The position numbers and the translations under genes were made by a program. A stretch of 64,000 nt of DNA from assembly GCA_965228695.1 (NCBI GenBank), contig CBDDIB010000002.1:304192-368191 (forward strand). The letters run 5' to 3'. Origin of the DNA: Alphaproteobacteria bacterium (lineage in GTDB: Bacteria > Pseudomonadota > Alphaproteobacteria > UBA8366). A model generated the notes under the pieces. That model did not search any database, had not been told where the DNA came from, and saw only the letters and a list, made by a program, of their open reading frames with translations. Of the stretch, positions 7,681 through 24,085 are shown piece after piece; positions within the stretch are counted from its first letter, which is position 1, and every line of letters begins with the position of its first letter.

Positions 7681-7757
7681 GCGCCCGTAGCTCAATTGGA
7701 TAGAGTGCCTGACTACGGATCAGGAGGTTGGGGGTTCGAGTCCTCCCGGGCGCGCCA
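7681..7757 (+). tRNA. tRNA-Arg (anticodon ACG)
   Basis: Hand-folded cloverleaf. Acceptor GCGCCCG/CGGGCGC, anticodon stem CCTGA/TCAGG with loop CTACGGA (ACG), T-arm GGGGG-TTCGAGT-CCTCC, encoded CCA end. Confidence 0.95.
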
Positions 7758-9121: not shown

Positions 9122-11182
9122 TTAGGCTGCCTTGACGTCGGAAATGAATTTCTCGACGACACTGCGCAGCATATCCGACTGCTGCGACAGTTCGCCCGCC
9201 GATTCCAGCACCTGCTGCGCGGCGGATCCTGTTTCCCCCGCCGCTTGCGTGATACCGACGATGTTGCTGCTGACTTCCTGCGTCCCGGTCGCCGCCTGCT
9301 GGGTATTCTCGGCAATTTCGCGAGTGGCAGCCCCTTGCTCAGCGACCGCGGCGGAGATGGTTTCCGCAATCGAATTGATCTCGCGGATCGTCTCGCCGAT
9401 ACCCCTGATCGCACCGACCGCGTTGTCGGTCACCGACTGCATGCTGCCGACCTGCTCGCTGATCTCGTCGGTCGCCTTCGCGGTCCTGGGTTGCCAGATT
9501 TTTGACCTCCGACGCCACGACGGCGAAGCCCTTGCCGGCCTCGCCCGCGCGGCGCGGCCTCGATTGTCGCATTCAACGCCAACAGGTTGGTCTGCTCGGC
9601 AATCTCGCTGATCAGGCCCACGACCTCGCCGATTTTCTGTGCGGCGTCGGCCAGGGACTGCACCGTTTCGTTCGTGCGTTCGGCCTCGGCATTCGCCTTG
9701 GTCGTGATTTCCGCCGATTGGGATACTTGGCGGTTGATCTCGTTGATCGAGGCCGACATTTCTTCCGATGCGGATGCCACAGTTTGTACGTTTGCCGTCG
9801 CCTGCTCGGACGCGGCGGCGACCGCCGTCGTCTGATTGCTGGTCTGTTCCGCGGTCGCGGACATCGCCTCGGCGGTCGACCGCATCTCGGCGGACGCCCC
9901 GGCAACCGAATTCACGATCTCCGACGCCTGCGAGTCGAAAGTCTCGGTCAGCTCGACGAGATATTTCGCCCGTTCTTCGCGCCGCTCCTGCGACTGACGT
10001 TCGACTTCCTCGAGACGTTTCTGCTCGATGGCACTCTCCTTGAAAGTCTGCATCGCCTCGGCCATTGCGCCAACTTCGTCCGCGCGATTCTGCGCGGGGA
10101 CTTCCACATCGAGGTTACCGGCCGAAAGGTCCTTCATCGCAACGGTCATGGCAACCACCGGCTTTGAGATCATGCTGCCCAGGCCCCAAGCCAGCCCGAG
10201 GCCCACGATGAGACCGAGGATACTGATCGCCGCGATGGAAATTTCCCCGTTGAGTATGATCTCGTCCGTCTCGGCGCGCAGCCGCGCCTCTTCCTTCTCG
10301 GCGGAATGTTGCAGCCATTCGGCATCGTCGATGATGATCTTCGAATTCGCGGCAAGGTCGGTATCGAGCAGCGTCTGCAGTTTCAACTCGTCCTTGTGCA
10401 CGATCTCGTAGGTCTTTTCATAGTCGTGGAACAGTTCCACGACTTCGGCGAACAGGGTCCTTTTCCTTATCCGTGTTCAGCGTGCCTTTCAGCGCCTTCA
10501 ACGTTTTGTCGAACACCACGAATTCGGCTTCGGTCTTCTCGGCGTAACTTTCGTCGCGCTGGCCGATCAGGATGTTGGTATAGAGCTGAATTAGCAGAGC
10601 GTGTTCGAGCGCGCTATTCGCCAGCTTAACGGCCGGGGCATTGCCCTCATGCTCCGCCTCCTCGATGATCATTTCCAAGTCCTTGACGATCTTCTCGCCT
10701 TCCGGGAATAGCCGATCGCGCACCAGCGTATCGTGCTCGGCCTTGAGCGCCGTCATCGTCTTGAACTGGCCCAGATACGCCGTAAAGGCGTTGCTTAGTT
10801 CTTCGACCTTGGCCCGGTGTTTCGGGTCGTGGATCACCGCAAGCCCGTGTTCGATGTTCTTGGTGATCTTCGTCGCGAGTTCGCGCACGGCGGCCACATC
10901 GGAGGCGCGACCCGTATATCCGTATTCCCGGACATGCGCGCGGAGCTTCAGGAAGTTCGTTTCGATCTTCGCCGCAACCGAGGCCTCTTCGACCGCTTCG
11001 GCAAACTTGTCCACATCCGTGCCGACCGATACGAAGCTGATATACCCGTTGGCGGCGACGAGAACGAGGACCGCGAGAACGACCGCCATGCCGCCCATGA
11101 TCTTCGACCGGATCTTCAGATCGTTAAGGAAGCCAACAATCCCAGAGGTCTTGGAATTGGCTAAAACACCATTCGCAACCAT
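9122..11182 (-). pseudogene. methyl-accepting chemotaxis protein, disrupted by three +1 frameshifts
   Basis: Four consecutive minus-strand ORF pieces in frames 1, 0, 2, 1: 10418..11182 (TM1 plus periplasmic helical sensor), 9430..10440 (TM2, HAMP, start of signalling domain), 9339..9572 ([22 protein letters not shown]) and 9122..9442 (C-terminal signalling domain). Single extra bases near 10455-10457, 9551-9552 and 9485-9486 explain each shift. Confidence 0.85.
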
Positions 11183-11718: not shown

Positions 11719-12462
11719 ATGTCCGACCCCGCCACACTTGCCATCATTTTCATCACCTTCCTGATCGCCGGCAGCGTCAAGGGCGTGATCGGCCTCGGCC
11801 TGCCGAGCGTCAGTTTGGCCCTTCTCACCGCGACGCTCGGGCTGCCGCAGGCGATGGCCCTGCTCTTGGTGCCGTCCTTCGTCACCAATCTCTGGCAGGC
11901 CATGGTCGGCGGGAACGGCATGTCTGTGTTGAAACGGCTTTGGCCCTTTCTGATCATGGCGACCGTCACCGTATGGCTCGGCGCGACCGCGCTGACCCGG
12001 GTCGACCTGGCATTGCTGTCGGCGCTCTTGGGTGTCCTGCTCGCCACCTATTCGGCATTGAGCTTGCTGAAGGTCCGGATCGTCATCGCCCCGCGGTACG
12101 AAGCGTGGGCCGGGCCGATGTTCGGTACGGTAAACGGCGTGCTGACCGGCATGACCGGCTCCTTCGTCGTGCCCGGGGTCATGTTCCTGCAGGCGATCGG
12201 CCTGCCGCGCGACATGTTCATCCAGGCGATGGGCATGCTGTTCACCGTATCGACCGTCGCCCTCGCCGTGGCCCTCGAGGGAAACAACCTGCTGTCGGCG
12301 GATTTGGGCATCCTGTCGGCGGCCGGGGTCGTCCCGGCGGTGATCGGCATGGTGGTCGGCCAGCGCGTCCGCCGGCGGCTGTCGGAAGAACGATTCCGGC
12401 AAGTTTTCTTCGTCGCCTTGTTGGTGATGGGCCTCTACATCATCGCCCGCGCCGCGTTCTAG
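11719..12462 (+). CDS. TauE/SafE family anion (sulfite/organosulfonate-type) exporter
   Basis: 247 aa with about 8 TM. N-terminus FLIAGSVKGVIGLGLPSVSLALL and a second-half repeat GVLTGMTGSFVVPG are typical of the TauE/SafE (DUF81) family. Confidence 0.78.
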   Translation: MSDPATLAIIFITFLIAGSVKGVIGLGLPSVSLALLTATLGLPQAMALLLVPSFVTNLWQAMVGGNGMSVLKRLWPFLIMATVTVWLGATALTRVDLALLSALLGVLLATYSALSLLKVRIVIAPRYEAWAGPMFGTVNGVLTGMTGSFVVPGVMFLQAIGLPRDMFIQAMGMLFTVSTVALAVALEGNNLLSADLGILSAAGVVPAVIGMVVGQRVRRRLSEERFRQVFFVALLVMGLYIIARAAF

Positions 12463-12533
12463 TTTGGGCGGCGACCGCGGAAGTGGCATAGTTTCCCGAC
12501 GCCGGTCCTACAGACATTGGGAAGGAAACGTCC

Positions 12534-13325
12534 ATGAGCGACACCGCCAAGACCGCCCACAAGCCGAAATCGCATTTTCACGCGCGCGTTTCGGTAGAGA
12601 TGGAGCAGCATCTGGAAAAACCGGAATGGGGTCTCCGGGAAAAACTGGCGCTGACCGCGCGCATGCTCGCGCGCGATGGCCACGGTTCGGGCCTTGCCGG
12701 GCAGATCACCGCGCGCGGCGACGAACCCGGCACCATGTGGACCGGCCGCTTCGGTCTCGGACTGGAGGAATTGTGCGCCTCCGATTTCATGCTGGTCGAC
12801 GACGACCTGAACGTTCTGGACGGCGAGGGCATGCCCAATCCGGCCAACCGGTTCCATCTGTGGGTCTACAAGGCACGGCCGGACGTGAAAAGCATCGTGC
12901 ATACGCATCCGCCTTACGTCTCGGCGTTGTCGATGATCGGCGTGCCGCTGATCGCCTCGCATATGGACACGTCGATGTTCTATGACGACTGCGCCTGGCT
13001 CAGCGAATGGCCGGGGCCGCCGATCGGCGATGACGAAGGCGAGTTGATCGCCACAGCGCTCGGCGACAAGCGGTCGATCCTGCTGGCGCATCACGGCCAG
13101 CTTTCCGCGGGGGGATCGGTCGAGGAAGCCGCCGTCCTCGCCTTCCATTTCGAACGGGCGGCGCAGCTCCAGCTCCTGGCGATGGCGGCGGGCGAAATCG
13201 AACCGCTCGACCCGGATTGCGGCCGCGACGCGCATGACTACCGTCTGAAGCCGGCGGTGGTCGACGCCACCTTCCTGTATCAAGCACGCCTGGTACTGCG
13301 GACAGAGGCCGACTGCCTGGACTAA
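12534..13325 (+). CDS. class II aldolase/adducin-fold protein (aldolase or non-oxidative decarboxylase type)
   Basis: 263 aa with GGAAGGA SD. Family core ...IVHTHPPYVSALS...LLAHHGQLSAGGSVEEAAVLAFHFERAAQLQ, with metal-binding His residues. Confidence 0.8.
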   Translation: MSDTAKTAHKPKSHFHARVSVEMEQHLEKPEWGLREKLALTARMLARDGHGSGLAGQITARGDEPGTMWTGRFGLGLEELCASDFMLVDDDLNVLDGEGMPNPANRFHLWVYKARPDVKSIVHTHPPYVSALSMIGVPLIASHMDTSMFYDDCAWLSEWPGPPIGDDEGELIATALGDKRSILLAHHGQLSAGGSVEEAAVLAFHFERAAQLQLLAMAAGEIEPLDPDCGRDAHDYRLKPAVVDATFLYQARLVLRTEADCLD

Positions 13326-14284
13326 CGCCTCGTCGCCTTGGCAAACCGCCGCGCCAGCGGTTTCATCAAATGCGGTGACAGGTAAATCGGGAACTGGCAC
13401 ATCGCGAAATAAAGCCACGCCATGTCCGGCAGCACGCCGCCTGTCGCCGCGAGCATCAACCCCATATTCCGCTGGGACGCCATAAAGGCGAGCGCGAAGG
13501 CACGGTCCCGGCCGGCCCACAGGAAGGCCAGAAGCGAGACCCCCAACACCGCGAAGGTGATGACGAAAGCCAGAATGCCGATGGCCGTCGCAAACAGCGG
13601 CGCCGCCAGGAAGGTGTCCGCCACGCTTTCCATCACCGCGGCGACGAAGACGAACAACACCAGGACGTTGAGGCCGTCGATCTCGTCCTTGCGGCGAACG
13701 ATCGCATCGCCGCCGGCAATCCGCCGGAGAACCGCGGCGATCGAGGCCGACCCGGCCAGGATCGCCAGCAGCTTGATCCCCAACGCAACCGGCGACAACG
13801 ACAGCGTCTCGTCGAGAAACAGGTAGGCATAGAAACTCGCGGTCAATGGCGTCAGCGCCGTGCTCGCGACCAGGGTGAGCAGGATCAGCGTCGCATCGAA
13901 CCCCATCAGCGCGGCGAAGGCCGGGGCCGCCATCATCGGCGACGCAACCGCCTGCAGCATGATCGCCAGATACAGGTCGGGAAAACGTCCCTCCAGATCG
14001 AACACCATGCAAACGCCCGCGAAGAGCAATGGCATTACGATCATTGTCCAGCCGGTCGCGGCCAACAGAACACCGGGACGCCGCAAGGTGCCGCGCAAGG
14101 ATGCGGCATCGACCCGCAGGAAGGCGATGCAGAGCAGCGCGAAGATCGCTTCGGCGACATAAGGCTTGAGCACCGCGCCGACCGCCGGCACCGCGATCCC
14201 GATGAACACCAGCACCGCGATCGCGCCGGTGCCCTGCCGGCCGAGCCATGCCAACCCGGCCATCGGTGTATCGAGAACGGACAT
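13322..14284 (-). CDS. BASS/SBF-like (bile acid:Na+ symporter family) transporter
   Basis: About 320 aa polytopic membrane protein with two-fold internal organisation and a pattern resembling SBF-like transporters. Family assignment is by eye only. I prefer the start at ATG 14284 (GGCGGA SD) over GTG 14314. Confidence 0.5.
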   Translation of the reverse strand: MSVLDTPMAGLAWLGRQGTGAIAVLVFIGIAVPAVGAVLKPYVAEAIFALLCIAFLRVDAASLRGTLRRPGVLLAATGWTMIVMPLLFAGVCMVFDLEGRFPDLYLAIMLQAVASPMMAAPAFAALMGFDATLILLTLVASTALTPLTASFYAYLFLDETLSLSPVALGIKLLAILAGSASIAAVLRRIAGGDAIVRRKDEIDGLNVLVLFVFVAAVMESVADTFLAAPLFATAIGILAFVITFAVLGVSLLAFLWAGRDRAFALAFMASQRNMGLMLAATGGVLPDMAWLYFAMCQFPIYLSPHLMKPLARRFAKATRR

Positions 14285-14375
14285 CGTTCCGCCGTTCAGT
14301 GCGTTGTGGAACACCCCCGAGCCGGCATCCTACCGCACCGCGGCGTCGCCGAAAGGACCGGTTCGGCGGAAATTG

Positions 14376-14729
14376 TTAGGCCAGCACCTTCTGCAAGGTA
14401 TGGCGGCGGTTGCTCGTGAAGGGCCGGACCTGTTCGGGCCAGCGGCCCTGCTCGATCGCGTCCGCCCATGCGGTACTGGTCAACACCTCGGGGCTTTCGA
14501 TCTCATAGACCGCGCTGTAGGTCGGCTCGGCGCTCGTATCGACCGTCTTTTCCTCGCCGCCGATGCTCAGCGTCAGCGGCGCCTGTTTCAGCCGCGTCAC
14601 CGAGATCACGCCCGGGACCTGCAGCAGCATCGGCACATGTTCTTCGTCGTAGACCTCGTTGAAAAGATCTTCCTTGTCCGGATCCACGTCCATGCTGGCG
14701 GTGAAGATGTATCGCGCCGTGATCGGCAT
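14376..14729 (-). CDS. small alpha+beta (EthD/Dabb-like?) protein of unknown function
   Basis: 117 aa with ATG and GGAAGGAAA SD, tightly spaced between the dioxygenase and transporter genes. Fold assignment is tentative. Confidence 0.45.
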   Translation of the reverse strand: MPITARYIFTASMDVDPDKEDLFNEVYDEEHVPMLLQVPGVISVTRLKQAPLTLSIGGEEKTVDTSAEPTYSAVYEIESPEVLTSTAWADAIEQGRWPEQVRPFTSNRRHTLQKVLA

Positions 14730-14747
14730 ACCGTTTCCTTCCTGATA

Positions 14748-15623
14748 TTAATCGCGAATCCAGCCTGGCCCCCACAGATTGAGGCTGCGTTCCTCGAGCG
14801 GCCAGACGCGCGGGGCCATTTCGCGCGGCATAATTTCCAGCTCGGCGGAAATCTCCACCTGGTTATCATGCGGGTCCTTGATCATGAAGAACAGGTTGTT
14901 GCCGGGTCCGTGCCGGCCCGGCCCCCACCACAGCTTGATATGCCGCGACGACATGTGGTCGGCCCAGTCGCGGATGTCGTTCCACGACGACGTTTCATAG
15001 GCATGATGGTCGGAGCCGACCGCCGACGCGCTGAACACCGCGAAGCTGTGATGTTCCGGATCGGAACGATAGAAGGCGACCTTGCGCGTCGCCGGATCGT
15101 CGACATCCGCGCTGCAATAGTCGGACGGCACATAGCCGAGCACGTCCTCGTAGAAGGACATCATGCGCGCGAGGTTGTCGGTCGCCACCACCACATGCTG
15201 CAGCCGTCCGGACAGCTTGACCGCCGACGGCGTGTTGACCGCCTTGTGCGACGGCAGGTCCCGGCGCACAAGGCCGAACACGTTCAGCCAGCCGTCGGGA
15301 TCGCGCACCGCAACCGCGTCGTCCTCGAAGACCGCCGAGGGCGACGGCTCGGTGTTCACGCCCTGGCCCTGCACGAAGTCGCGGATATCCTGTAGCTGTC
15401 GCCTGTCCCGGACGCGGAATCCGTGATAGGGCCGCTCGCCCGGCGCACCGGGGCCGACGACCAGCCGCCGGCCGGGCCCTTGCAGCAGGACGGTGCCGTC
15501 CGGCATCGGCGACGCCTGATACCCGAAAGTATCGGCGTAGAAATCCGCCAGCATGGCCGGATCGTCGGAATTCAGCCGCAGATGGTCCAATTGGGACGGC
15601 CAAATCGGGGAGTCGGTACTCAT
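14748..15623 (-). CDS. type I (two-domain VOC) extradiol ring-cleavage dioxygenase
   Basis: 291 aa with two glyoxalase/VOC modules (LDHLRLNSDDPAMLADFY... and LQHVVVATDNLARMMSFYEDVLG...). Candidate metal ligands HHAYETSS and ...QVEISAELE resemble catechol/dihydroxybiphenyl 2,3-dioxygenases. Confidence 0.8.
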   Translation of the reverse strand: MSTDSPIWPSQLDHLRLNSDDPAMLADFYADTFGYQASPMPDGTVLLQGPGRRLVVGPGAPGERPYHGFRVRDRRQLQDIRDFVQGQGVNTEPSPSAVFEDDAVAVRDPDGWLNVFGLVRRDLPSHKAVNTPSAVKLSGRLQHVVVATDNLARMMSFYEDVLGYVPSDYCSADVDDPATRKVAFYRSDPEHHSFAVFSASAVGSDHHAYETSSWNDIRDWADHMSSRHIKLWWGPGRHGPGNNLFFMIKDPHDNQVEISAELEIMPREMAPRVWPLEERSLNLWGPGWIRD

Positions 15624-15674
15624 GAAGTCGCTCGCTCTGAAATAGGCTAAGGCATTCTAGGCGTTTCAGGACAG

Positions 15675-15715
15675 ACCGCAACGCGCTCCATGACGTTTCG
15701 CGGTTGACCGCAACG
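15675..15715. promoter_or_regulatory. direct repeat GACCGCAACG x2 (31-bp phasing) in divergent promoter region
   Basis: GACCGCAACG occurs at 15675..15684 and 15706..15715. The segment between contains CGTTTCGCGG, an imperfect inverted copy. It sits in the 192-bp gap between the divergent dioxygenase operons. Confidence 0.35.
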
Positions 15716-15747
15716 TCTGCCCCGGCGGGTCAGCCGGTCCGATTATG

Positions 15748-15777
15748 TTGTCCGGCGGCCCGTCGGATCGCTATAAT
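15748..15777 (+). promoter_or_regulatory. sigma70-like promoter for the Rieske oxygenase operon
   Basis: TTGTCC (15748..15753), an 18-nt spacer, then a perfect TATAAT (15772..15777), 38 nt before ATG 15816. GGAAGGA SD follows. Confidence 0.4.
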
Positions 15778-15815
15778 CCGCTGTAAATAAAGACGATAGC
15801 GGGAAGGAAACGACC

Positions 15816-17183
15816 ATGGGCGGTAACGGCCCTCGGCAGTACACCGGCGACCTGGTCAACATCGACGCCGGGCGGATCAGCCGGGACATCTTTACCGATC
15901 AGGCCATCTACGAAGACGAGCTGGAGCGGATTTTCCCGCGCTCCTGGATGTTCGTCGGCCATGAGAGCCAGATCCCGGAACCCGGCGATTTCATTCTCAG
16001 CCGCATGGCCGAGGAGTCGGTGATTTTCAACCGCGACCGGCACGGCAAGCTGCATGTCTTTTTAAACAACTGCCGCCATCGCGGCATGCGCGTCTGCCGC
16101 GCCGATACCGGCAACACGCGCAAATTCATGTGCCCCTTCCACGCCTGGGTGTTCTCCGACGAAGGCGCGCTGGTCGGCGTACCGAAGATGGAAACCGGCT
16201 ACCACAACGAACTCGACAAGTCGCAATGGGGCCTGATCGAAGCGCGCGTGGCCAGCTACCACGGCTATGTATTCGCCTGCTGGGACGAGGAGACGCCGGA
16301 CTTCGAAACATATCTGGGCGACCTGCGTTTCTACTTCGACGACTACTGCGAACTACCTGACGGCACCCATGGGGAATGGGAGGCGTTCGGCGGCGTCTTC
16401 AAATGGCGCGTGCCGTGCAATTGGAAATTCGGCGCTGAAAATTTCGGCGGCGACTATTACCACAACCCGAGCCACGCCTCGGTCGACGCGGTCGTGTTGT
16501 CCCCCGCCGGGGTGAAGGGCCGCCACACCTACGACGCGATCACCAAAACGCGGGAACTTTACAAGCTCAACATCTGCGTGACGCCGGAGGGGCACACCGC
16601 GCGCGGCGAGCTGTTCAAGGACGACTACGAATATCTGCCCACCTATCAGGAAATGGCGGTCGTCGAAGATTATTTCCGCGACTGCTACAAGCAGCGCCAA
16701 TCGCGGCTCGGCGAGAAGGCGCGCTGGTTCGGACATGGCGGCACGATCTTTCCCAATGTCTCCTTTTCGAACGGCGTGCAAAGCATGGGGACGTGGAATC
16801 CGTGCGGTCCGCACGAGACCGAAATTTGGCGCATCTTCCTGGCGCCCAAGGAAGCGCCCGACGAGGTCAAGAACGTGCTGCGCCACTACGTCATCCGGTA
16901 TCAGGGACCGTCGGGCCTCACCGAGCAGGACGACATGGAGAATTGGGGCTCGGCCCATCAAGGCGCCCGCGGCACGATCGCGCGGCGCTACGATTACCAC
17001 TACGGCATGGGCATGGGCTACGAGCGCAAGGGCTGGCCGGTCGAATGGCTCGGCGGCGACGTTTACGCGACCGAGGACGTGTCGGAACAGAACCAGCGCG
17101 CTTACTACGCCCGCTGGGCCCGGGACATGGACAACCCGCCGGCCGCGGACCGCCGGCCGGAACCCGCCGAAGCGGCGGAGTAG
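15816..17183 (+). CDS. aromatic ring-hydroxylating (Rieske non-heme iron) oxygenase, alpha subunit
   Basis: Rieske motif CRHRGMRVC...CPFHAW. Mononuclear iron motif GDYYHNPSHAS. N-terminal region closely resembles toluene/biphenyl-type alpha subunits (CRHRGMRxCRAD.GN...F.C..H.W). Confidence 0.9.
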   Translation: MGGNGPRQYTGDLVNIDAGRISRDIFTDQAIYEDELERIFPRSWMFVGHESQIPEPGDFILSRMAEESVIFNRDRHGKLHVFLNNCRHRGMRVCRADTGNTRKFMCPFHAWVFSDEGALVGVPKMETGYHNELDKSQWGLIEARVASYHGYVFACWDEETPDFETYLGDLRFYFDDYCELPDGTHGEWEAFGGVFKWRVPCNWKFGAENFGGDYYHNPSHASVDAVVLSPAGVKGRHTYDAITKTRELYKLNICVTPEGHTARGELFKDDYEYLPTYQEMAVVEDYFRDCYKQRQSRLGEKARWFGHGGTIFPNVSFSNGVQSMGTWNPCGPHETEIWRIFLAPKEAPDEVKNVLRHYVIRYQGPSGLTEQDDMENWGSAHQGARGTIARRYDYHYGMGMGYERKGWPVEWLGGDVYATEDVSEQNQRAYYARWARDMDNPPAADRRPEPAEAAE

Positions 17184-17192
17184 GAAACGGCC

Positions 17193-17729
17193 ATGGATGG
17201 AACGCCGCAAAGCACGCTGATCGACGAACTGCTGCTGCGGTATCGTGTCGAGCAGTTCTATATCCACGAGGCGGAACTGCTGGACACGCGCCAGTTCGAG
17301 GCATGGCTCGACCTCCTGGCCGAGGATATCCGCTACTGGATGCCGGTCACGCGCAACAAGGGCCATGGCGAGTGGGACGACGAATACACCCGCGAAGGCA
17401 AGGATCTGAACTGGTTCGACGAGGGCAAGTTCGAGCTGGAGCAGCGGGTCAAGCAGATCGCCACCGGCCTGCACTGGGCCGAGGAGCCAATCTCGCGGAC
17501 GTGCCACATGTTCTCGAACCTGCAGGTGACCGACGACGACGGCGAGACACTGACCGCCCGCTGCCGCTTCATCGTGTATCGCAACCGGACCGAGACGGAG
17601 ACGGACTTCTTCGTCGGCAAACGCCAGGATACGCTGCGCGAAACCGACGACGGCTTCGTCATCGCGGCGCGCGAAATCTATCTCGACCAAAGCGTGCTGT
17701 TGGCGAAGAACCTGACGGTTTTCTTTTAG
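17193..17729 (+). CDS. aromatic ring-hydroxylating oxygenase, beta subunit (NTF2/SnoaL fold)
   Basis: 178 aa, starts 10 nt after the alpha-subunit stop. Typical beta-subunit features (EQFYIHEAELLDTRQFEAWLDLLAEDIRYWMP..., ...FVIAAREIYLDQSVL). Confidence 0.85.
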   Translation: MDGTPQSTLIDELLLRYRVEQFYIHEAELLDTRQFEAWLDLLAEDIRYWMPVTRNKGHGEWDDEYTREGKDLNWFDEGKFELEQRVKQIATGLHWAEEPISRTCHMFSNLQVTDDDGETLTARCRFIVYRNRTETETDFFVGKRQDTLRETDDGFVIAAREIYLDQSVLLAKNLTVFF

Positions 17730-17749
17730 GCGGCGTACGCAAACTGAGT

Positions 17750-17847
17750 GTCATTCCCGCGAACGCGGGAATCCAAGCACCTGCTGACCCCGCTCGTCGT
17801 CCCACCATCCAATGAATTCACTGGATTCCCGCTTTCGCGGGAATGAC
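17750..17847. repeat. REP/MITE-like double hairpin element
   Basis: GTCATTCCCGCGAACGCGGGAATCC (17750..17774) and GGATTCCCGCTTTCGCGGGAATGAC (17823..17847) are each palindromic hairpins. They are inverted copies of one another (24/25) flanking a 48-bp spacer. They produce the artefactual peptides VIPANAGIQ and SFPRKRESS in the ORF track. Confidence 0.75.
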
Positions 17848-17897
17848 AATGATGGCGCTGTAGGCAACCATTCCAAACGCAAGAACGGAGACGCATC

Positions 17898-18686
17898 ATG
17901 GCCGACCCCAAAACCGTCATCGTGTCCGGCGGCACCTACGGCATCGGGCGGGGCATCGTGCTCGATCTCGCCCGGCGGGGATGGAATGTCGTGGCTTTCG
18001 GGCTGGACGGCAAGCAGCCGGGCAGCGCCGCCGATAACGGCATCGACGGTACGCGCGCAGCGCTGTCCGCCGAAGGCCTCAAGGCCGACGTGATCGAAGC
18101 CGACGTCGCCGAGGCCGGCGCGGTGGCCGGCGTGGTCGATCACGCGCTGTCCCTGCACGGCCGGATCGACGGCGCGGTCAACAACGCGGCGCTGCGGCCG
18201 AGCGGCACGGTGCTCGACACCGACGAGGCCACCTTCGACCGGGTCGTCGCGGTGAACCTCAAAGGGCAGTTCCTGTTGTGCAAGGCCGTGATCCCGCACA
18301 TGCGCGACGCCGGCGGCGGCGCGATCGTGAATATCGGGTCCGGCGCGGGATGGGGCAAACCGGGCATCGCCGCCTACTGCGCCAGCAAGGGCGGGGTCTT
18401 CGCGCTCAGCACCGCGCTTGCCTACGACCACTTGACGGACCGCGTCCGCGTCAATGTTGTGGTGCCGGGACCGCAAACCGCATCGGGCATGGTCGAGGCG
18501 ATGGCAAGCAGCGGCACCGGCAGCGGACCGCAGCCTGTCACCGCGACCGGCCGGCAGACCCAGCCGCAAGACATCGCCAACGCGGTCGCCTTTCTATTGT
18601 CGGACGAGGCCGCGCAGATTTCCGGAACCGTCGTCGACGTCGGCGCCTTCGCGCATCAAGGCGGCGTCGGCCAACCGCGGCGCTGA
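17898..18686 (+). CDS. SDR family oxidoreductase (candidate cis-dihydrodiol dehydrogenase)
   Basis: 262 aa with ACGGAG SD. Cofactor motif VSGGTYGIGRG, NNAA, catalytic YCASKGG. The dihydrodiol dehydrogenase role is inferred from position after the oxygenase subunits. Confidence 0.85.
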   Translation: MADPKTVIVSGGTYGIGRGIVLDLARRGWNVVAFGLDGKQPGSAADNGIDGTRAALSAEGLKADVIEADVAEAGAVAGVVDHALSLHGRIDGAVNNAALRPSGTVLDTDEATFDRVVAVNLKGQFLLCKAVIPHMRDAGGGAIVNIGSGAGWGKPGIAAYCASKGGVFALSTALAYDHLTDRVRVNVVVPGPQTASGMVEAMASSGTGSGPQPVTATGRQTQPQDIANAVAFLLSDEAAQISGTVVDVGAFAHQGGVGQPRR

Positions 18687-18799
18687 CCGAAAACTATTTT
18701 GCGCCGAACCCTACCGCCCTCGGAATAAATCGGTACAATTGTCACGTACCGGTAACGTCGTAATTGCATAATCCGGATGTCATAACAGGGAACAATTCA

Positions 18800-19843
18800 A
18801 TGAAATCGAAAATGATGTCGAAGTTCGGCATGAGTATCGCGGCGACCATGACGGCCGTCATGTTGAGCGCCGGCGGAGTCCAGGCCAAAACCGATCTGCT
18901 CGTCTATACGGCGGTGGAGGCGGACGAATTGAAGAAATTCAAGAAAGCGTTCGAAACCGATTATCCCGATGTGAATATCAAGTGGGTGCGTGACTCCACG
19001 GGCATCATCACGTCGAAGCTGCTCGCGGAAAAAGACAACCCGAAGGCGGACATCGTCTGGGGCGTTGCGGCGACAAGCCTGCTGCTGCTCAGCAAGCACA
19101 ATTATTTCCAGGGCTACGCGCCGAAAGGTGTCGAAAAACTCGACAAGAAATTTTACGACACCAAGAACAATCCGCCGCTCTGGGTCGGGCAGCGGGCCTG
19201 GATCGCATCGATCTGCTACAACACGGTGGAAGGCAAGAAGCACAATCTGCCCGTCCCCAACACCTGGGATGACCTGACGAAGCCCGTTTACAAAGGCCAC
19301 GTCATCATGCCGAACCCGAACTCGTCGGGCACCGGCTTCCTGGATGTCTCATCCTGGATTCAGTTGAAGGGCGAGAAGAAGGCGTGGTCCTACATGGATG
19401 CGCTGCATACCAACATCGCGCGCTATACGCATTCCGGCTCGAAGCCATGCAAGCTCGCCGCCAAAGGTGAAATCCCCATCGGCGTTTCCTTCGCCTATCG
19501 CGGCGCGAAATCCAAGAACAGCGGCGCACCGCTCGAGGTCGTGGCCCCGGCGGAAGGCGTCGGCTGGGATTTGGAAGCCTTCGGCATCGTGCGCAACACG
19601 AAGAACCTGAAAGCCGCGAAGGCATTGGCCGATTGGTCCGTAACCAAAAAAGCGAACAAAATCTACAACGAGGAATATGCGGTGGTTGCCATGCCGGGCG
19701 TTGCCAAGCCGGTGAAGAATTTCCCGCCGGGCATCGAAGGCAAGATGATCAAGAACGACTTCGACTGGGCAGCCGCCAACCGGATCCGCATCCTGGACGA
19801 ATGGCGCAAGCGCTACGACGGAAAGTCGGAACCGAAGAAGTAG
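18800..19843 (+). CDS. ABC transporter periplasmic substrate-binding protein (Fe3+/polyamine/2-aminoethylphosphonate-type, PhnS2-like)
   Basis: ATG 18800 gives the signal peptide MKSKMMSKFGMSIAATMTAVMLSAGGVQA. LVYTAVEADELKKFKKAFETDYPDVNIKWVRDSTG... is typical of this PBP2 family. Noticeably lower GC than its neighbours. Confidence 0.7.
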   Translation: MKSKMMSKFGMSIAATMTAVMLSAGGVQAKTDLLVYTAVEADELKKFKKAFETDYPDVNIKWVRDSTGIITSKLLAEKDNPKADIVWGVAATSLLLLSKHNYFQGYAPKGVEKLDKKFYDTKNNPPLWVGQRAWIASICYNTVEGKKHNLPVPNTWDDLTKPVYKGHVIMPNPNSSGTGFLDVSSWIQLKGEKKAWSYMDALHTNIARYTHSGSKPCKLAAKGEIPIGVSFAYRGAKSKNSGAPLEVVAPAEGVGWDLEAFGIVRNTKNLKAAKALADWSVTKKANKIYNEEYAVVAMPGVAKPVKNFPPGIEGKMIKNDFDWAAANRIRILDEWRKRYDGKSEPKK

Positions 19844-19868
19844 GGCCGGCTTTCGACGGAAGAATATT

Positions 19869-19904
19869 CGCCCCGGTCCCCGGATGGAGCCGGGGCGTCT
19901 TCTT
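19869..19904 (+). terminator. intrinsic terminator/attenuator hairpin after the binding-protein gene
   Basis: CGCCCCGG (19869..19876) pairs with CCGGGGCG (19890..19897) and is followed by TCTTCTT. Located between the SBP stop and the ATPase start, a common arrangement for excess SBP expression. Confidence 0.55.
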
Positions 19905-19954
19905 GGGCCGAACCTGCCGCGTTTCTGATACGGTAGCCGGGGAGGATCGGGCGC

Positions 19955-21055
19955 ATGGATGGTTCAGACGGTGGCGCATATCTGCGCATTCAACATCTGA
20001 CGAAGAAATTCGGCGATTTCGTCGCCTTGCAAGACGTCTCGCTCGATGTTCAGGAGGGCGAGTTCGTCTGCTTCCTCGGGCCGTCGGGCTGCGGCAAGAC
20101 AACGCTATTGCGGGCGATCGCCGGCCTCGATATCCAAACCTCCGGCACCATCCATCAAGCCGGCGTCGACATCTCCTCGCTGCCGCCCAGCGAACGCGAT
20201 TTCGGGATTGTTTTCCAATCCTATGCCTTGTTCCCGAATCTATCGGTGACCCGGAACATTTCATATGGCCTGGAGAACAAAAAGAAGTCCCGCGCGGAGA
20301 TCGATGCTCGGGTTTCCGAACTGATCGACCTCGTCGGTCTTGATGAACATCGCGACAAATACCCGGCGCAGCTCTCGGGCGGACAACAACAGCGCGTTGC
20401 CCTGGCGCGGGCGCTCGCTACATCGCCGGGACTGCTGCTGTTGGACGAACCGTTGTCGGCGCTGGACGCGAAGGTTCGCGTACATTTGCGCCACGAAATC
20501 AAACAATTGCAACACAAGATCGGCGTTACCACGATCATGGTGACGCACGACCAGGAAGAAGCCTTGGCGATGGCCGACCGGATCGTCGTGATGAACCAAG
20601 GCTTCATCGAGCAGACCAGCACGCCGACGGACGTTTACGCCCAGCCAACGTCACCTTTCGTCGCGGATTTCATCGGCACCACAAATTTCATCGACGGCGT
20701 GATGATCGAGGATGGCCGCATTTCGGTCGCCGGCGTCACGATCGACGCGAACCGCGACAGCAACGCCTTCGCGGCGGGCGACAAGGTGACGATCTGCGTC
20801 CGGCCCGAAGACGTGCTGGTGACCGAGACGGCGGACGGACAGACCGGCAGTTTCGAGGTCACGGTTTCGGATGTCGAATTCCTCGGATCCTTCCATCGCT
20901 GCCACCTCGTGCCGACCGGCGGCAACGGGGAATCATTCATGGCGGATCTTTCCGCCAACCGCGCGCGCAATCTGCAGCTCAAGGAAGGGCGGACGTTGAA
21001 CGTGCTGTTGCCGGCGGAATTCGTGCGCGTCTATGCCTCAGGTGAGACCGAGTGA
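19955..21055 (+). CDS. ABC transporter ATP-binding protein (PotA/FbpC/PhnT-like, with C-terminal TOBE-type domain)
   Basis: Walker A GPSGCGKTT, signature LSGGQQQRVALARAL, Walker B LLLLDEP, H-loop VTHD. 366 aa. Confidence 0.9.
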   Translation: MDGSDGGAYLRIQHLTKKFGDFVALQDVSLDVQEGEFVCFLGPSGCGKTTLLRAIAGLDIQTSGTIHQAGVDISSLPPSERDFGIVFQSYALFPNLSVTRNISYGLENKKKSRAEIDARVSELIDLVGLDEHRDKYPAQLSGGQQQRVALARALATSPGLLLLDEPLSALDAKVRVHLRHEIKQLQHKIGVTTIMVTHDQEEALAMADRIVVMNQGFIEQTSTPTDVYAQPTSPFVADFIGTTNFIDGVMIEDGRISVAGVTIDANRDSNAFAAGDKVTICVRPEDVLVTETADGQTGSFEVTVSDVEFLGSFHRCHLVPTGGNGESFMADLSANRARNLQLKEGRTLNVLLPAEFVRVYASGETE

Positions 21056-21062
21056 CCGCGGC

Positions 21063-22760
21063 ATGACCGACACAATCGCCACCGCGCCCGTCGTCAAACC
21101 GAAGGTCAGCAGCGAAGACTGGATTATGCGCGCGGTCCTGGTCGGGATCGCGCTCTATTTGTTCGTCTCGATCCTGCTGCCGCTCTACGCGATCCTATCC
21201 AAGAGTTTCAAGGACGCCGACGGGGCGTTCGTCGGCCTGTCCAACTACGCAAAATTCTTTTCGACGCCGGCCCTGTTCTGGTCGATCCAGAACAGCCTGA
21301 CGGTAACATTGCTCTCCTGTTTCATCGTCGTGCCGACCGCCTTCATCTACGCCTATGCGCTAACCCGCACCTGCATGCCGTTCAAGAGCGTTTTCAAGGG
21401 CGTGGCGCTGATCCCGATCCTGATGCCGTCGCTGCTGCCGGCGATCGCGCTGGTCTATCTCTTCGGGAACCAGGGGATCATCAAGTCCTGGCTGTTCGGC
21501 TACGATATCTACGGCCCAATCGGGATCGTGATGGGTGAGAGTTTCTACGTCTTTCCGCATGTCCTGACGATCCTGCTTATCTCGATGGCGAATTCGGACG
21601 CCCGGCTCTACGAAGCCTCGACCGCGCTCGGCGCGAGCAAGATCAAGACCTTCTTTACCGTCACGCTGCCGAGCGTCCGCTACGGCCTCGTATCCGCCTT
21701 CTTCGTCTGTTTCACCTTGGTGATCACGGACTTCGGCGTTCCGAAGGTTGTCGGCGGCAAGTACAACGTGCTGGCGACCGACATTTACAAACAGGTCGTC
21801 GGGCGGCAGGACTTCGAGATGGGCGCGGTGGTCAGCATGGTCCTTTTGTTGCCCGCCGTTTTGGCTTTCGCCGCAGACCGCGTTGTGCAGCGCAAACAGG
21901 TCGCCCTCCTGTCCGCCCGCGCCGTGCCGTTACAACCACGGCGCAACCCGGCGATCGACGGGTTGCTGTTCGCCTTCTGCGGATTGGTCGGATTCATTCT
22001 CATATCGATCTTGGGCGTCGCGGCCTTTGCCTCCTTCGCCAAGTTCTGGCCATATGACCTTACCCTCGTCCTGAATCACTATGATTTCGACCTCATGGAC
22101 GGCGGGGGCTGGGACTCGTATTTCAATTCCATCGAACTGGCCGCCTGGACCGCCGTGGTCGGCACGGCATTGGTGTTCACCGGCGCCTATCTGGTCGAGA
22201 AGAGCAACGGGTTCCTGGCGGGCCGCGCCGGCATGCAGCTTCTCTGCATGGTGCCGATGGCCGTGCCCGGGCTCGTGCTGGGCCTCGCCTATGTCTTCTT
22301 CTTCAACGCGCCCGGCAACCCGCTCGGCTTCCTGTATCACACGATGCCGATCCTGGTGATCTGCACGGTGACGCATTTCTATACCGTCGCGCACCTCACC
22401 GCGGTGACGGCGCTGAAGCAGATGGACGCCGAGTTCGAAAGCGTCTCGGCCTCGCTCAAAGTGCCGTTCTATCGCACCTTCATCCGCATCACCGTGCCGG
22501 TCTGTCTTCCCGCAATCCTGGACATCTCGATGTATCTGTTCGTCAACGCGATGACGACGGTGTCGGCGGTCGTGTTCCTGTATTCGCCGGACACGGCGCT
22601 CGCCTCGGTCGCGATTCTGAACATGGACGACGCCGGCGATATCGCCCCGGCCGCCGCAATGGGCATGATGATCGTCGCCACGGCCGCCGCGGTCCGGCTG
22701 CTGCACGCGATTCTGACGCGCGGAATTCTGGCCCGCACCCAGGCGTGGCGGCGGCGCTAG
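21063..22760 (+). CDS. fused two-domain ABC transporter permease
   Basis: About 565 aa with about 12 TM and two MalFG-type permease modules (EAS.ALGAS....FF.VTLP and ESVSASLKVP.YRTF..ITVP). Size and fusion match Fe3+/2-AEP-type permeases. Start could be 21033 or 21063. Confidence 0.82.
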   Translation: MTDTIATAPVVKPKVSSEDWIMRAVLVGIALYLFVSILLPLYAILSKSFKDADGAFVGLSNYAKFFSTPALFWSIQNSLTVTLLSCFIVVPTAFIYAYALTRTCMPFKSVFKGVALIPILMPSLLPAIALVYLFGNQGIIKSWLFGYDIYGPIGIVMGESFYVFPHVLTILLISMANSDARLYEASTALGASKIKTFFTVTLPSVRYGLVSAFFVCFTLVITDFGVPKVVGGKYNVLATDIYKQVVGRQDFEMGAVVSMVLLLPAVLAFAADRVVQRKQVALLSARAVPLQPRRNPAIDGLLFAFCGLVGFILISILGVAAFASFAKFWPYDLTLVLNHYDFDLMDGGGWDSYFNSIELAAWTAVVGTALVFTGAYLVEKSNGFLAGRAGMQLLCMVPMAVPGLVLGLAYVFFFNAPGNPLGFLYHTMPILVICTVTHFYTVAHLTAVTALKQMDAEFESVSASLKVPFYRTFIRITVPVCLPAILDISMYLFVNAMTTVSAVVFLYSPDTALASVAILNMDDAGDIAPAAAMGMMIVATAAAVRLLHAILTRGILARTQAWRRR

Positions 22761-22903
22761 CACGTTTCGGCCGGCGCGTTCCGGCGCGGCGGCACAAGCG
22801 CAACGGCCCGTGTCCCGCCACTCATATCTTCTTGTGAGGCCCAAACTCAGGACCTAGGCTGAGTGCCAATTAAAACTCGGTTTACGTGAGGGAACGCAGG
22901 CAC

Positions 22904-24085
22904 ATGCAACGATCCAGGCTCCCCGTAGGCGGCGCGAATGTCTTTCAACAAATTCGCCAGAAGCGAACCGACGCCTTGGCGCAAGGGTTGTCGCTGCTCG
23001 ATCTGTCGATCGGCGAGCCGAAAGGCGCGGCACTGCTGAGCGCGCGGCAGGCCGCCCAGGCCGCGGTGATGAGCGAGGACGAAGCCATGCACGCCTACCA
23101 ATACAACGAAAGCCCGGCGGTGCCCGATTTCTCCCGCCGTTTCGTCACCGCGCATCTGCGCCGCGATCTGTCGGAAGCCGACGTGGACTATGTCCCGATT
23201 CCGGGCATCAAGCCGATCCTCGGCCTTCTGCCGCTGGCCTGCGGTTGCGCGGAACAACCGGTCACCGTCGCCACGACGACCAAGCCCGGCTATCCCATTC
23301 CGGCGAATTGGTGCGACTACCACGTGCATGCGACGCATTACGCACTGCCGCTGAGTTCCGAGAACGGTTTCCGGTTCGGGACGGCGGACATCCGATCCGG
23401 CACCGATCTGATCATGACGAACTACCCGCATAATCCGTCCGGCCAGGTCGCCGCCGCCGACTGGCTGCGCGCGCTATGCCAATACTGCAGCGATCACGAT
23501 ATCCGGCTGTTCAACGATGCCGCCTATTTCGCGCTCGGCCACGATGACGACCGCGCGGCCCTCGCCGAAATCGCCGTGGACTTCCCGGACCTCTCCTGGT
23601 GCGAGGCCTATACCGCCGCGAAATTGATCGGCAACGGCACCGGCTGGCATGTGGGTGCGATGATCGGGTCGCCGGATTTCATCGCCGACGTGAAGGAGGT
23701 CAAGGGCAAGACCGATGCCGGCTTCGTCGCACCGATGGCCGCCGGCGCAATCGCCACGCTCGAGACCGACCAAGTGAATATCGACGCCATGCGCGAAACC
23801 TATCGATCCCGGCTGACGGTGCTGATGGACCTGATGAAGGCGTGCGGCATGCGGCTGGCGATCGAACCCAAGGCCGGATTTTACACGCTGTGGGAAACGC
23901 CGACCCAGGCCTTCGGCAAACCGGTGACGGATGCGGAAGCGTTCAATTTCGCCATGATCGAAACGGTCGGCGTGGTCGGCGTGCACTTCCCCGGCTATGT
24001 GCGCTACGCGGTTTGCGCCGACGTCGCTGATATGGCTGAAGATTTGCGCGCCGCTTTCGAGAAGGCCAAGGTCTCATACGGTTAG
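22904..24085 (+). CDS. class I/II PLP-dependent aminotransferase (atypical lysine motif)
   Basis: LSIGEPK near the N-terminus, NYPHNPSG, DAAY, and a candidate PLP-lysine segment YTAAKLIGNGTGWHVG in place of the usual SFSK..MTGWR.G. Start taken at ATG 22904. Confidence 0.78.
   Translation: MQRSRLPVGGANVFQQIRQKRTDALAQGLSLLDLSIGEPKGAALLSARQAAQAAVMSEDEAMHAYQYNESPAVPDFSRRFVTAHLRRDLSEADVDYVPIPGIKPILGLLPLACGCAEQPVTVATTTKPGYPIPANWCDYHVHATHYALPLSSENGFRFGTADIRSGTDLIMTNYPHNPSGQVAAADWLRALCQYCSDHDIRLFNDAAYFALGHDDDRAALAEIAVDFPDLSWCEAYTAAKLIGNGTGWHVGAMIGSPDFIADVKEVKGKTDAGFVAPMAAGAIATLETDQVNIDAMRETYRSRLTVLMDLMKACGMRLAIEPKAGFYTLWETPTQAFGKPVTDAEAFNFAMIETVGVVGVHFPGYVRYAVCADVADMAEDLRAAFEKAKVSYG

Follow-up and report, generated by a model that had tools for sequence, protein, structure and literature searches.

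Positions 11719-18686 of the 64-kb window (the whole stretch of DNA analysed here) carry genes for a Rieske non-heme-iron oxygenase and an extradiol-type dioxygenase beside a class II aldolase-fold enzyme and two putative anion carriers, which raises the question of whether this interval encodes one pathway or more than one. The sequence-only reading had tentatively taken it for a single minimal module that cleaves a sulfonated or carboxylated aromatic, with the aldolase-fold enzyme as a decarboxylase and the TauE/SafE-type carrier as a sulfite exporter. Profile searches, residue alignments and gene order in related genomes lead to a different answer, which is favoured here with better than even confidence: the interval is a mosaic in which two units with separate functions have become neighbours, and they are so in only one genus of uncultured marine Alphaproteobacteria. 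The left-hand unit (unit A, 11719-14314) would be a pod cluster, named for pyruvic oxime dioxygenase (POD), and the right-hand unit (unit B, 14376-24085) an upper aromatic-catabolic operon pair.

Every gene described in the sequence-only reading is real and its coordinates are exact, as judged by the map of open reading frames (ORFs) and by Pfam and NCBIfam profile searches. The left arm holds the following:

11719-12462, plus strand: TauE/SafE-family membrane anion carrier, 247 aa (PF01925, 90.8 bits)
12534-13325, plus strand: predicted POD-family Fe(II) enzyme with the class II aldolase fold, 263 aa (Aldolase_II; NF005484, 384 bits)
13322-14314, minus strand: BASS/SBF-like polytopic membrane carrier, 330 aa (PF01758 (SBF), 24.8 bits)

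The convergent 4-nt overlap between the aldolase-fold gene and the BASS-like carrier gene (13322-13325) is confirmed on the ORF map.

The identity of the aldolase-fold protein is central to the question. Its score against the NCBIfam model NF005484 lies well above the cutoff of 261 bits, and phmmer aligns it with AfPOD (PDB 8IL8) at E=1e-81, with 52% identity over 244 aligned residues, and with 8IX6 at E=2e-82; across 8IL8, 8IX6 and 8IQA the E-values are no higher than 5e-78. These three entries are structures of the Alcaligenes faecalis POD and of a second POD, BWPOD (PMC11841055). The published definition of PODs combines monophyly with a similarity threshold of E<1e-60 to AfPOD (PMC11841055), and the window protein falls within this threshold, which is the similarity part of the definition only. 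The same study lists as key residues, in AfPOD numbering, the His triad, Gln53, Phe103, His104, Glu164, Phe69 and an aromatic residue at position 233, together with an N-terminal extension carrying the conserved Lys8 and Met19 (PMC11841055). All of the listed residues are kept in the window protein, as H123, H125, H187, Q57, F107, H108, E168, F73 and Y236, and its K12 and M23 align with Lys8 and Met19 in the N-terminal extension. On the strength of the NF005484 score, the AfPOD match and these residues, the gene is a predicted member of the POD family.

The suggestion that this gene encodes a ring-fission or phthalate decarboxylase is therefore not borne out, because it is a POD homologue and POD releases nitrite; profile searches likewise place the protein with POD. 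Some decarboxylases of aromatic pathways do have the class II aldolase fold, and the window gene weakly matches one such model (NF053537, 3,4-dihydroxyphthalate decarboxylase; 53 bits). Set against this match, the protein has all of the POD-specific residues, including those of the N-terminal helix, which aldolases and decarboxylases lack.

POD converts pyruvic oxime and O2 to pyruvate and nitrite in an Fe(II)-dependent reaction, and unit A would correspondingly convert an alpha-keto-acid oxime and O2 to a keto acid and nitrite, with the flanking TauE/SafE and BASS-like anion carriers moving the oxime and/or the nitrite. Most proteobacterial pod genes cluster with a GST gene and a transporter gene of variable family (PMC8629993). 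The two carriers of the window are most simply read as such variable transporter partners, whose most likely roles are uptake of the oxime, nitrite export or both. The TauE protein scores far above the PF01925 cutoff (32.6 bits) and has multiple hydrophobic segments in a Kyte-Doolittle scan. The assignment of the BASS-like carrier is weaker: its score just exceeds the PF01758 cutoff of 24.3 bits and covers profile positions 4-127 of 191, no NCBIfam model matched, and its overlapping hydrophobic windows are consistent with a polytopic membrane protein. In the pod/podh clusters of A. faecalis the pod gene likewise lies beside transporter genes; there, however, the transporters are of the MHS or TctC type, whereas the window pairs a POD known from its sequence with TauE/SafE and BASS-like carriers and has no adjacent GST gene. 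The neighbours of POD genes in metagenomes are similarly varied, and include MFS together with LysR, TctC, EamA or a nitroreductase. In one group of loci from TARA and other marine metagenomes (L105-L111), POD homologues 63-68% identical to the window protein are divergent to a nitroreductase-family gene, with PPK2 downstream.

Whether the left arm belongs with the oxygenase was judged from synteny. A genome scan centred on the Rieske alpha subunit returned 80 loci, and exact look-ups added 5 more (loci are designated L001, L003 and so on). Alpha orthologues of at least 70% identity (range 70-98%) occur at 50 of these loci, which form 36 clusters at 96% identity from marine metagenome-assembled genomes (MAGs). 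Gene order was counted in the 24 of the 36 clusters with flanks of at least 2 kb upstream and at least 4 kb downstream; they come from related lineages, and the counts are not independent. The beta-subunit gene lies near alpha in all 24. An extradiol orthologue (75-84% identity) and a class I/II aminotransferase (68-74% identity) are each found near alpha in 13, and both together in 10, while an orthologue of the short-chain dehydrogenase/reductase (SDR; 70-75% identity) follows beta in 10/24. No extradiol, SDR or aminotransferase gene is present near alpha in four clusters. The POD gene is near alpha in two of the 24, both of the window's genus; the BASS-like carrier, the 117-aa protein and the ABC binding protein are each found in three, all of the same genus; and TauE is found in five, three of which are of that genus.

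The linkage of TauE, POD and the BASS-like carrier with alpha is thus confined to same-genus genomes, apart from distant TauE homologues near alpha in L027 (40% identity) and in L030, L031 and L033 (about 51%), and this adjacency appears largely coincidental. Even within the genus the left arm is unstable: L007 keeps TauE and the BASS-like carrier and lacks POD, the left arms of same-genus loci carry variable insertions (an EEP phosphatase, an aspartate aminotransferase, a methyl-accepting chemotaxis protein (MCP)), and the stretch between the BASS-like gene and the 117-aa gene varies. The converse scan, centred on POD in metagenomes, gave 42 loci, among them a same-genus contig (L089) and a contig with a near-identical POD gene that is 1.8 kb long (L090). 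At some 35 other POD loci, the neighbourhood contains none of the TauE, BASS, alpha, beta, extradiol and aminotransferase genes. A single minimal module is accordingly not what the related genomes show, since the left arm occurs with alpha only in the window's genus and POD loci elsewhere lack the right-arm genes.

Some observations do speak for the single module. The TauE protein does belong to the TauE/SafE family, L003 and L019 contain TauD-family genes, and TauE and aldolase-fold genes recur near alpha, beta and SDR in a sister lineage (L028-L034; for example L030, 5496-17504). There, an alpha 77% identical to that of the window is found in an alpha/beta/SDR arrangement without an extradiol gene, and its neighbours are genes for an FAD aromatic hydroxylase and an esterase, two class II aldolase-fold genes and a TauE of 51% identity; one of the aldolase-fold genes is weakly PhtC-like (57 bits) and divergent from alpha. 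The aldolase-fold genes of other lineages, however, belong to other subfamilies (PRK07044, PRK06486), the linkage of TauE, POD and the BASS-like carrier to alpha is not conserved beyond one genus, and the window holds no desulfonation or sulfite-handling genes. Taken as a whole, the single module for a sulfonated or carboxylated aromatic, with its decarboxylase and sulfite exporter, is largely refuted by synteny and is considered very improbable. The recurring aldolase-fold genes were also considered as a conserved decarboxylase step and rejected: their subfamilies differ, those near alpha in L019 and L036 belong to yet another one, the L019 copy lies beyond the housekeeping gene purB, and the corresponding gene of a Variovorax cluster described below is only 27% identical to the window POD.

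The proposed export of sulfite finds no support in the window either. Among the ORFs of positions 1-36 kb there are no genes for Xsc, SuyAB, TauD, Cuy or sulfite dehydrogenase, and within the same 1-36 kb no sulfonate- or sulfite-producing enzyme lies beside TauE, whose next gene is POD. Of the charged aromatic that had been proposed as the substrate, the carboxylated form remains plausible, given the TAXI-TRAP and TctC uptake genes in the operons of relatives; the sulfonated form is unsupported.

The right arm extends past the interval originally considered:

14376-14729, minus strand: 117-aa dimeric alpha+beta-barrel protein, EthD/ABM-like by prediction (no Pfam match; AF2 and Foldseek)
14748-15623, minus strand: two-domain VOC-superfamily type I extradiol-like dioxygenase, 291 aa (two Glyoxalase/VOC stretches)
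15624-15815, no strand: divergent intergenic region, 192 bp (one sigma-70-like consensus site)
15816-17183, plus strand: Rieske non-heme-iron oxygenase alpha subunit, 455 aa (PF00355 and PF00848 (Ring_hydroxyl_A))
17193-17729, plus strand: Rieske oxygenase beta subunit, 178 aa (PF00866 (Ring_hydroxyl_B), 138.8 bits)
17749-17848, no strand: REP-like inverted hairpin pair (two copies of ATTCCCGC-N4-GCGGGAAT)
17898-18686, plus strand: classical SDR, 262 aa (PF13561, PF00106)
18764-19843, plus strand: PhnS2-type ABC binding protein (TIGR03261, 500 bits)
19955-21055, plus strand: PhnT2-type ABC ATPase (TIGR03265, 514 bits)
21033-22760, plus strand: PhnU2-type fused ABC permease (TIGR03262, 815 bits)
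22886-24085, plus strand: class I/II pyridoxal phosphate (PLP) aminotransferase, 399 aa (PF00155)

The end of the original interval at 18686 cuts off two recurrent partners, the transporter slot and the aminotransferase (18764-24085).

The alpha subunit contains the motifs reported earlier, namely CRHRGMRVC at residues 86-94, CPFHAW at 106-111 and ENFGGDYYHNPSH at 208-220. The Rieske ligands follow the CxH...CxxH pattern (C86-R-H88 ... C106-P-F-H109; PF00355, 61.7 bits), and alignment with BphA1 and HcaE places the mononuclear-iron site at E208-NFGG-D213-YY-H216-NPS-H220 and E370-QDDMENW, such that both the 2-His-1-carboxylate site and the bridging Asp are present. The closest solved alpha subunit is BphA1 of strain RHA1 (1uli), with 39% identity and E=9e-89 over the full length, and HcaE (8k0a) aligns from end to end with 40% identity. 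The best NCBIfam match is the HcaE equivalog NF042946, whose cutoff is missed by a wide margin (350 bits against 830), and no NCBIfam equivalog cutoff is reached by alpha. The beta subunit, by comparison, passes NF007479 (PRK10069 subfamily; 196 bits against 145). The nearest relatives of alpha are found in OZ245815.1 (98% identity) and in three more MAGs of uncultured marine Alphaproteobacteria (94-95%). As judged from these alignments, alpha is a toluene/biphenyl/phenylpropionate-like oxygenase of an uncharacterised marine alphaproteobacterial clade. With 39-40% identity to the closest solved enzymes and no equivalog cutoff passed, the earlier description of the alpha/extradiol module as uncharacterised is upheld, and a search of the literature for this gene combination found nothing relevant.

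No electron-transfer partner is encoded near this oxygenase. A Pfam search of all sizeable ORFs from position 1 to about 36 kb confirmed that ferredoxin, reductase, alpha/beta-hydrolase and LysR/IclR/GntR regulator genes are absent there; a Rieske motif scan of the 64 kb recovered alpha itself only, and tblastn with a BenC-type reductase had no match in the window. The same holds for relatives, as neither a cognate ferredoxin or reductase gene nor a conserved adjacent redox locus was found in about 50 orthologous loci. Because the clade never has redox partners nearby, these are best regarded as supplied in trans, and the proposal that the electron-transfer components are borrowed from elsewhere in the genome has held up. 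The further assumption that an alpha of this type needs a dedicated ferredoxin and reductase is doubtful in view of an uncharacterised cluster on the chromid of Variovorax paradoxus VAI-C (CP063167.1, 1975253-1994521, INQ48_40365-40410; L138), which encodes an alpha 49% and an SDR 55% identical to those of the window and a single BenC-type reductase with Fer2, FAD_binding_6 and NAD_binding_1 domains. That the reductase gene lies directly before alpha suggests a two-component system rather than a ferredoxin plus reductase and, by analogy, the partner of the window oxygenase is probably a BenC-type Fer2-FAD-NAD protein encoded elsewhere. Like the window, the Variovorax cluster groups alpha, SDR and beta, and nearby it has binding proteins for carboxylate-type uptake (three of the TctC family) and a class II aldolase-fold gene. 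It differs in placing the SDR gene between alpha and beta, in possessing IclR and MocR-like regulators, in that its aldolase-fold gene is not POD, and in lacking a two-domain extradiol gene. An auxin iad locus was considered as its identity and rejected: with IclR and MocR-like regulators and no MarR, its gene content does not resemble that of the iad locus. The cluster nonetheless offers a handle on the oxygenase clade in a cultured organism.

The second enzyme of the right arm, the extradiol-like dioxygenase, was compared with homoprotocatechuate dioxygenase (HPCD) and HsaC. In the alignment, H143, H206 and E257 in the C-terminal domain correspond to the HPCD metal ligands H155, H214 and E267, and H192 to the catalytic H200 of HPCD, while M247 replaces HPCD Y257 and BphC Y250; the whole pattern is invariant in 21 orthologues. 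HPCD H200 and Y257 and BphC Y250 are second-sphere catalytic residues. HpaD is the best NCBIfam match of the enzyme, and HPCD is among its best solved-structure matches; the triad and H200 are kept, but HPCD has 365 residues and Y257 where the window enzyme has 291 and Met247. No curated equivalog model among HpaD, BphC, C23O and HsaC was passed, with scores of 89 (cutoff 321), 66 (cutoff 366), 61 and 53 bits, respectively, against cutoffs of 321-450. Both alpha and the extradiol enzyme keep their catalytic ligands and are predicted to be competent, and Met247 may mark a clade with an atypical substrate or mechanism.

Downstream of beta, the best NCBIfam matches of the SDR are generic (the glucose 1-dehydrogenase subfamily and FabG), and the cis-diol dehydrogenase models BphB, HcaB and BenD are absent among the best 25 of its 217 SDR matches; by its position, the SDR would be the (dihydro)diol dehydrogenase of the module. 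The ABC genes that follow form a PhnS2T2U2-type set that passes all cutoffs (393 bits for TIGR03261, 458 for TIGR03265 and 593 for TIGR03262). No phosphonate-catabolic neighbour (phnW, phnX, phnA or phnY) is present in the window; PhnW is a class V aminotransferase, whereas the adjacent aminotransferase of the window belongs to class I/II. The nearest solved relatives of the binding protein are 4r72 (AfuA, which binds sugar phosphates) and the PLP-binding protein P5PA (6wce). This importer fills the transporter slot of the operon in the window's genus only. In L086 and L088 the slot between SDR and aminotransferase is occupied by a TAXI-TRAP transporter, and in the same-genus loci L007, L008 and L024 the ABC permease is separated from the aminotransferase by a TAXI-TRAP made up of a 634-aa fused DctM protein and a 328-aa NMT1_3 binding protein (L007, 16964-19932). 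In the window (22760-22886) and in L006, the TAXI-TRAP has been cleanly deleted and the PhnS2T2U2-type importer alone is kept.

The aminotransferase at the end of the arm has no NCBIfam equivalog match. Its orthologues within the operon region, 68-74% identical, often stand directly after beta, and in several loci with differing flanks the spacing between the two genes is 0-60 nt. The enzyme carries the motif TAAK...GWHVG, in which His takes the place of the Arg in the Gly-x-Arg-x-Gly motif that usually follows the PLP lysine.

Together, these assignments allow a route to be proposed for unit B. A Rieske dioxygenase of the alpha3beta3 type would take electrons from a reductase encoded elsewhere and cis-dihydroxylate an aromatic acid, after which the SDR would rearomatise the diol to a catechol and the divergently transcribed extradiol-type dioxygenase would open the ring. 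The co-oriented transporter (ABC here, TAXI-TRAP in relatives) would import the substrate, and the class I/II aminotransferase would exchange a side-chain amino for a keto group; the hydrolase and lower-pathway steps would be encoded elsewhere. The carboxylate-type importers of relatives, the aminotransferase and the HcaE-like alpha point to a substrate class, and suggest an aromatic amino-acid-like compound or one of the arylpyruvate/arylpropionate type.

A narrower view is that alpha and beta, with or without the SDR, are the only functional unit, and that the extradiol gene, the aminotransferase, both transporters and the left arm accompany it as bystanders through joint inheritance within a set of related marine genomes. 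The 4/24 clusters with none of extradiol, SDR and aminotransferase fit this view, as do L001 and L087, in which alpha and beta are paired with quite different genes (CMD, an unknown protein of 156-158 aa, a bicupin and a methyltransferase). Aminotransferase orthologues are moreover widespread and often unlinked, and the relatedness of the lineages noted above makes the counts less independent than their number implies. On the other hand, the divergent adjacency of extradiol and alpha and the close spacing of beta and aminotransferase persist across differing flanks and gene orders. The extradiol orthologues are conserved like alpha, although these were found in loci fetched via alpha or via the same-genus POD, no extradiol-centred search having been made. 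Lastly, the combination of Rieske dioxygenase, dehydrogenase and extradiol dioxygenase is the canonical upper-pathway triad. The bystander explanation is regarded as unlikely, though by no means negligible.

Several further observations weigh against the two-unit reading with its aromatic-catabolic right arm. The extradiol clade lacks the conserved Tyr and may not act on a simple catechol, and the SDR lies outside the BphB/HcaB subfamily. The importer belongs to a family predicted to be specific for 2-aminoethylphosphonate, and the names of its nearest solved relatives (Fe3+-type periplasmic component, PLP-binding protein) have nothing to do with aromatic acids; it may be an unrelated insertion, and it is doubtful that it serves aromatic catabolism. 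Aminotransferase orthologues of at least 66% identity form more than 120 clusters compared with about 40 for alpha, both of the two sampled (L139 and L140) lie among housekeeping genes with no Rieske genes near, and a neighbour-joining tree mixes alpha-linked and unlinked aminotransferases, so that the adjacency may partly be the inherited synteny of a general-purpose enzyme. As to the separation of the two units, the recurrence of TauE and non-orthologous aldolase-fold genes near alpha, beta and SDR in L028-L034 may reflect some functional tie. Following the aminotransferase-centred searches, the candidacy of the aminotransferase as a dedicated pathway enzyme was downgraded, and it is a probable partner of the module rather than a dedicated one.

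The six same-genus loci (L006, L007, L008, L024, L089 and the window), in which all parts are adjacent, raise the opposite possibility of an integrated nitrogen-oxime route within the genus. POD would strip the nitrogen of an arylpyruvate oxime as nitrite, which TauE or the BASS-like carrier would move, the aminotransferase would join arylpyruvate and amino acid, and the HcaE-like Rieske oxygenase, the SDR and the Tyr-less extradiol enzyme would degrade the ring. Oximes of this kind are found, for instance, among the metabolites that marine invertebrates derive from tyrosine, and the record names of several related loci appear to denote MAGs from sponges or other hosts. The best family-level match of alpha is a phenylpropionate dioxygenase model, the best matches of the extradiol enzyme include homoprotocatechuate dioxygenase, and a possible link of pod clusters to the uptake and degradation of aromatics has been raised (PMC8629993). 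Yet these genes are linked in one genus only, where variable insertions break up the arrangement, L007 is without POD, and no aromatic genes are found near other POD loci (about 35 loci). The integrated route is thus improbable. In a weaker variant, the set of extradiol, alpha/beta, SDR, transporter and aminotransferase genes may be a new dioxygenolytic route for aromatic amino acids.

A biosynthetic role, in which ring cleavage, transamination and cyclisation would yield a pyridine- or picolinate-type metabolite, accommodates the fact that in L003 a five-gene version (extradiol divergent from alpha, beta, SDR and aminotransferase) stands alone between folK and rpoZ-spoT, with neither a hydrolase nor a lower pathway. 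Extradiol cleavage products can cyclise with nitrogen. The transporter slot of several lineages is filled by uptake systems, however; in L086 an alpha/beta-hydrolase gene of the meta-cleavage type overlaps the aminotransferase stop codon, and typical tailoring, export or regulatory genes are not present. Of all the explanations considered, this is the one to which the least credence is given.

On the favoured two-unit reading, the Rieske/extradiol set represents an uncharacterised clade within a familiar type of system, and it stands beside a known enzyme family. It shares with the E. coli 3-phenylpropionate/cinnamate pathway (HcaEF, HcaB, MhpB) a Rieske alpha/beta pair followed by an SDR and an extradiol enzyme, and beta passes the cutoff of the PRK10069 subfamily, but alpha falls far under the HcaE cutoff, the HcaC ferredoxin and HcaD reductase have no counterpart near it, the SDR is not HcaB-like, and operons of the window type repeatedly include an aminotransferase and an uptake transporter. 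MhpB has a LigB-type fold, unlike the VOC type I ring-cleavage enzyme of the window. With the biphenyl pathway (BphA1A2-BphB-BphC of Rhodococcus jostii RHA1 and Paraburkholderia xenovorans LB400) the alpha3beta3 type and the two-domain VOC fold are shared; the window nevertheless lacks BphA3/BphA4 and BphD, and its extradiol enzyme lacks the conserved Tyr. The biphenyl pathway also acts on a hydrocarbon, whereas the predicted substrate of the window module is an imported acid.

Current understanding is not overturned by these results, and their main gain lies in correcting an over-integrated reading of adjacent genes. The module clade is widespread in marine alphaproteobacterial MAGs, with more distant paralogues of about 50% identity in SAR202 and Rokubacteria, and knowledge of its substrate would help in modelling the turnover of dissolved organic matter in the sea. 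For heterologous expression, the consistent lack of nearby redox partners provides a handle, as do the aminotransferase and transporter genes that recur in the operon. The predicted window POD adds a marine alphaproteobacterial case, paired with TauE and BASS-like carriers, of a key enzyme of heterotrophic nitrification, and illustrates how "class II aldolase" labels hide POD function. The integrated oxime route, if true, would tie enzymes of heterotrophic nitrification to the catabolism of aromatic natural products in marine, possibly host-associated bacteria.

The remaining gene of unit B, for the 117-aa protein, follows the extradiol gene on the same strand after a gap of 18 nt. The protein matches no Pfam family, and its similarity to EthD TIGR02118 (E=0.002; 18.7 bits against a cutoff of 30.5) is below membership. 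An AF2 model of high confidence (pLDDT 95.4) was aligned by Foldseek with 2ftr, 1si9, 2gff and 3hx9 at probability 1.00 and query-normalised TM scores of 0.53-0.62, and the neighbours found include EthD, ABM, SP1, LsrG and MhuD. On this model, the protein is predicted to belong to the dimeric alpha+beta-barrel (EthD/ABM) superfamily, with a ferredoxin-like beta-alpha-beta-beta-alpha-beta fold, and its earlier "alpha+beta" label is borne out. The family comprises 2220 homologues, with more than 100 clusters at 66-77% identity, and bears no Pfam or NCBIfam name; 39 of its 117 columns are invariant, including an N-R-R-H motif close to the C-terminus. Elsewhere (L131-L137) its members lie beside luciferase-like monooxygenases, AtuA and an SDR, or acyl-CoA dehydrogenase/hydantoinase genes, and the tie to the extradiol gene is seen solely in the window's genus. 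Three candidate identities were rejected: a steady partner of the extradiol enzyme, by reason of the unrelated contexts elsewhere; a Rieske ferredoxin, since there is no Cys/His motif; and a DUF6614 protein, of which a 117-aa example is encoded near alpha in L001 (BLASTP E=3.6).

Finally, some features of the locus concern neither enzyme set directly. The divergent spacer (15624-15815) measures 192 bp, as stated earlier, and contains a single promoter-like site, TTGTCC-18-TATAAT at 15748-15777 on the plus strand; this is a consensus match only, and promoter-like sites in the spacer are in no excess over shuffled sequence. The GC content is even along the cluster at about 0.62-0.65, and an Rfam scan of 9-25 kb found no riboswitch and no other RNA family.

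The element between beta and the SDR had been called a REP element. The hairpins at 17749-17848 are indeed present, but REP-like is the safer label, because the organism is not a pseudomonad. A Pseudomonas origin, to which the REP label and a GC content of 62% might have pointed, was rejected on the ground that the closest genomes are MAGs of uncultured Alphaproteobacteria. The arms 17749-17775 and 17822-17848 are each 27 nt long and 96% complementary, and the core ATTCCCGC-N4-GCGGGAAT occurs here in two inverted copies and nowhere else in the 64 kb (chance expectation 0.05). The element is absent from L024, as the gap between beta and SDR there is only about 36 nt, and the pair is a lineage-specific insertion between the two genes.

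To the left of TauE lies a broken methyl-accepting chemotaxis gene (9125-11182, minus strand), onto which a 685-aa MCP orthologue from L006 maps as four pieces in frames -1, -2, -3 and -1, and which is either a pseudogene or the product of assembly indels. Just left of the block that runs from NHL, MCP and TauE to the aminotransferase is a tRNA-Arg(ACG) gene (7681-7757, plus strand).

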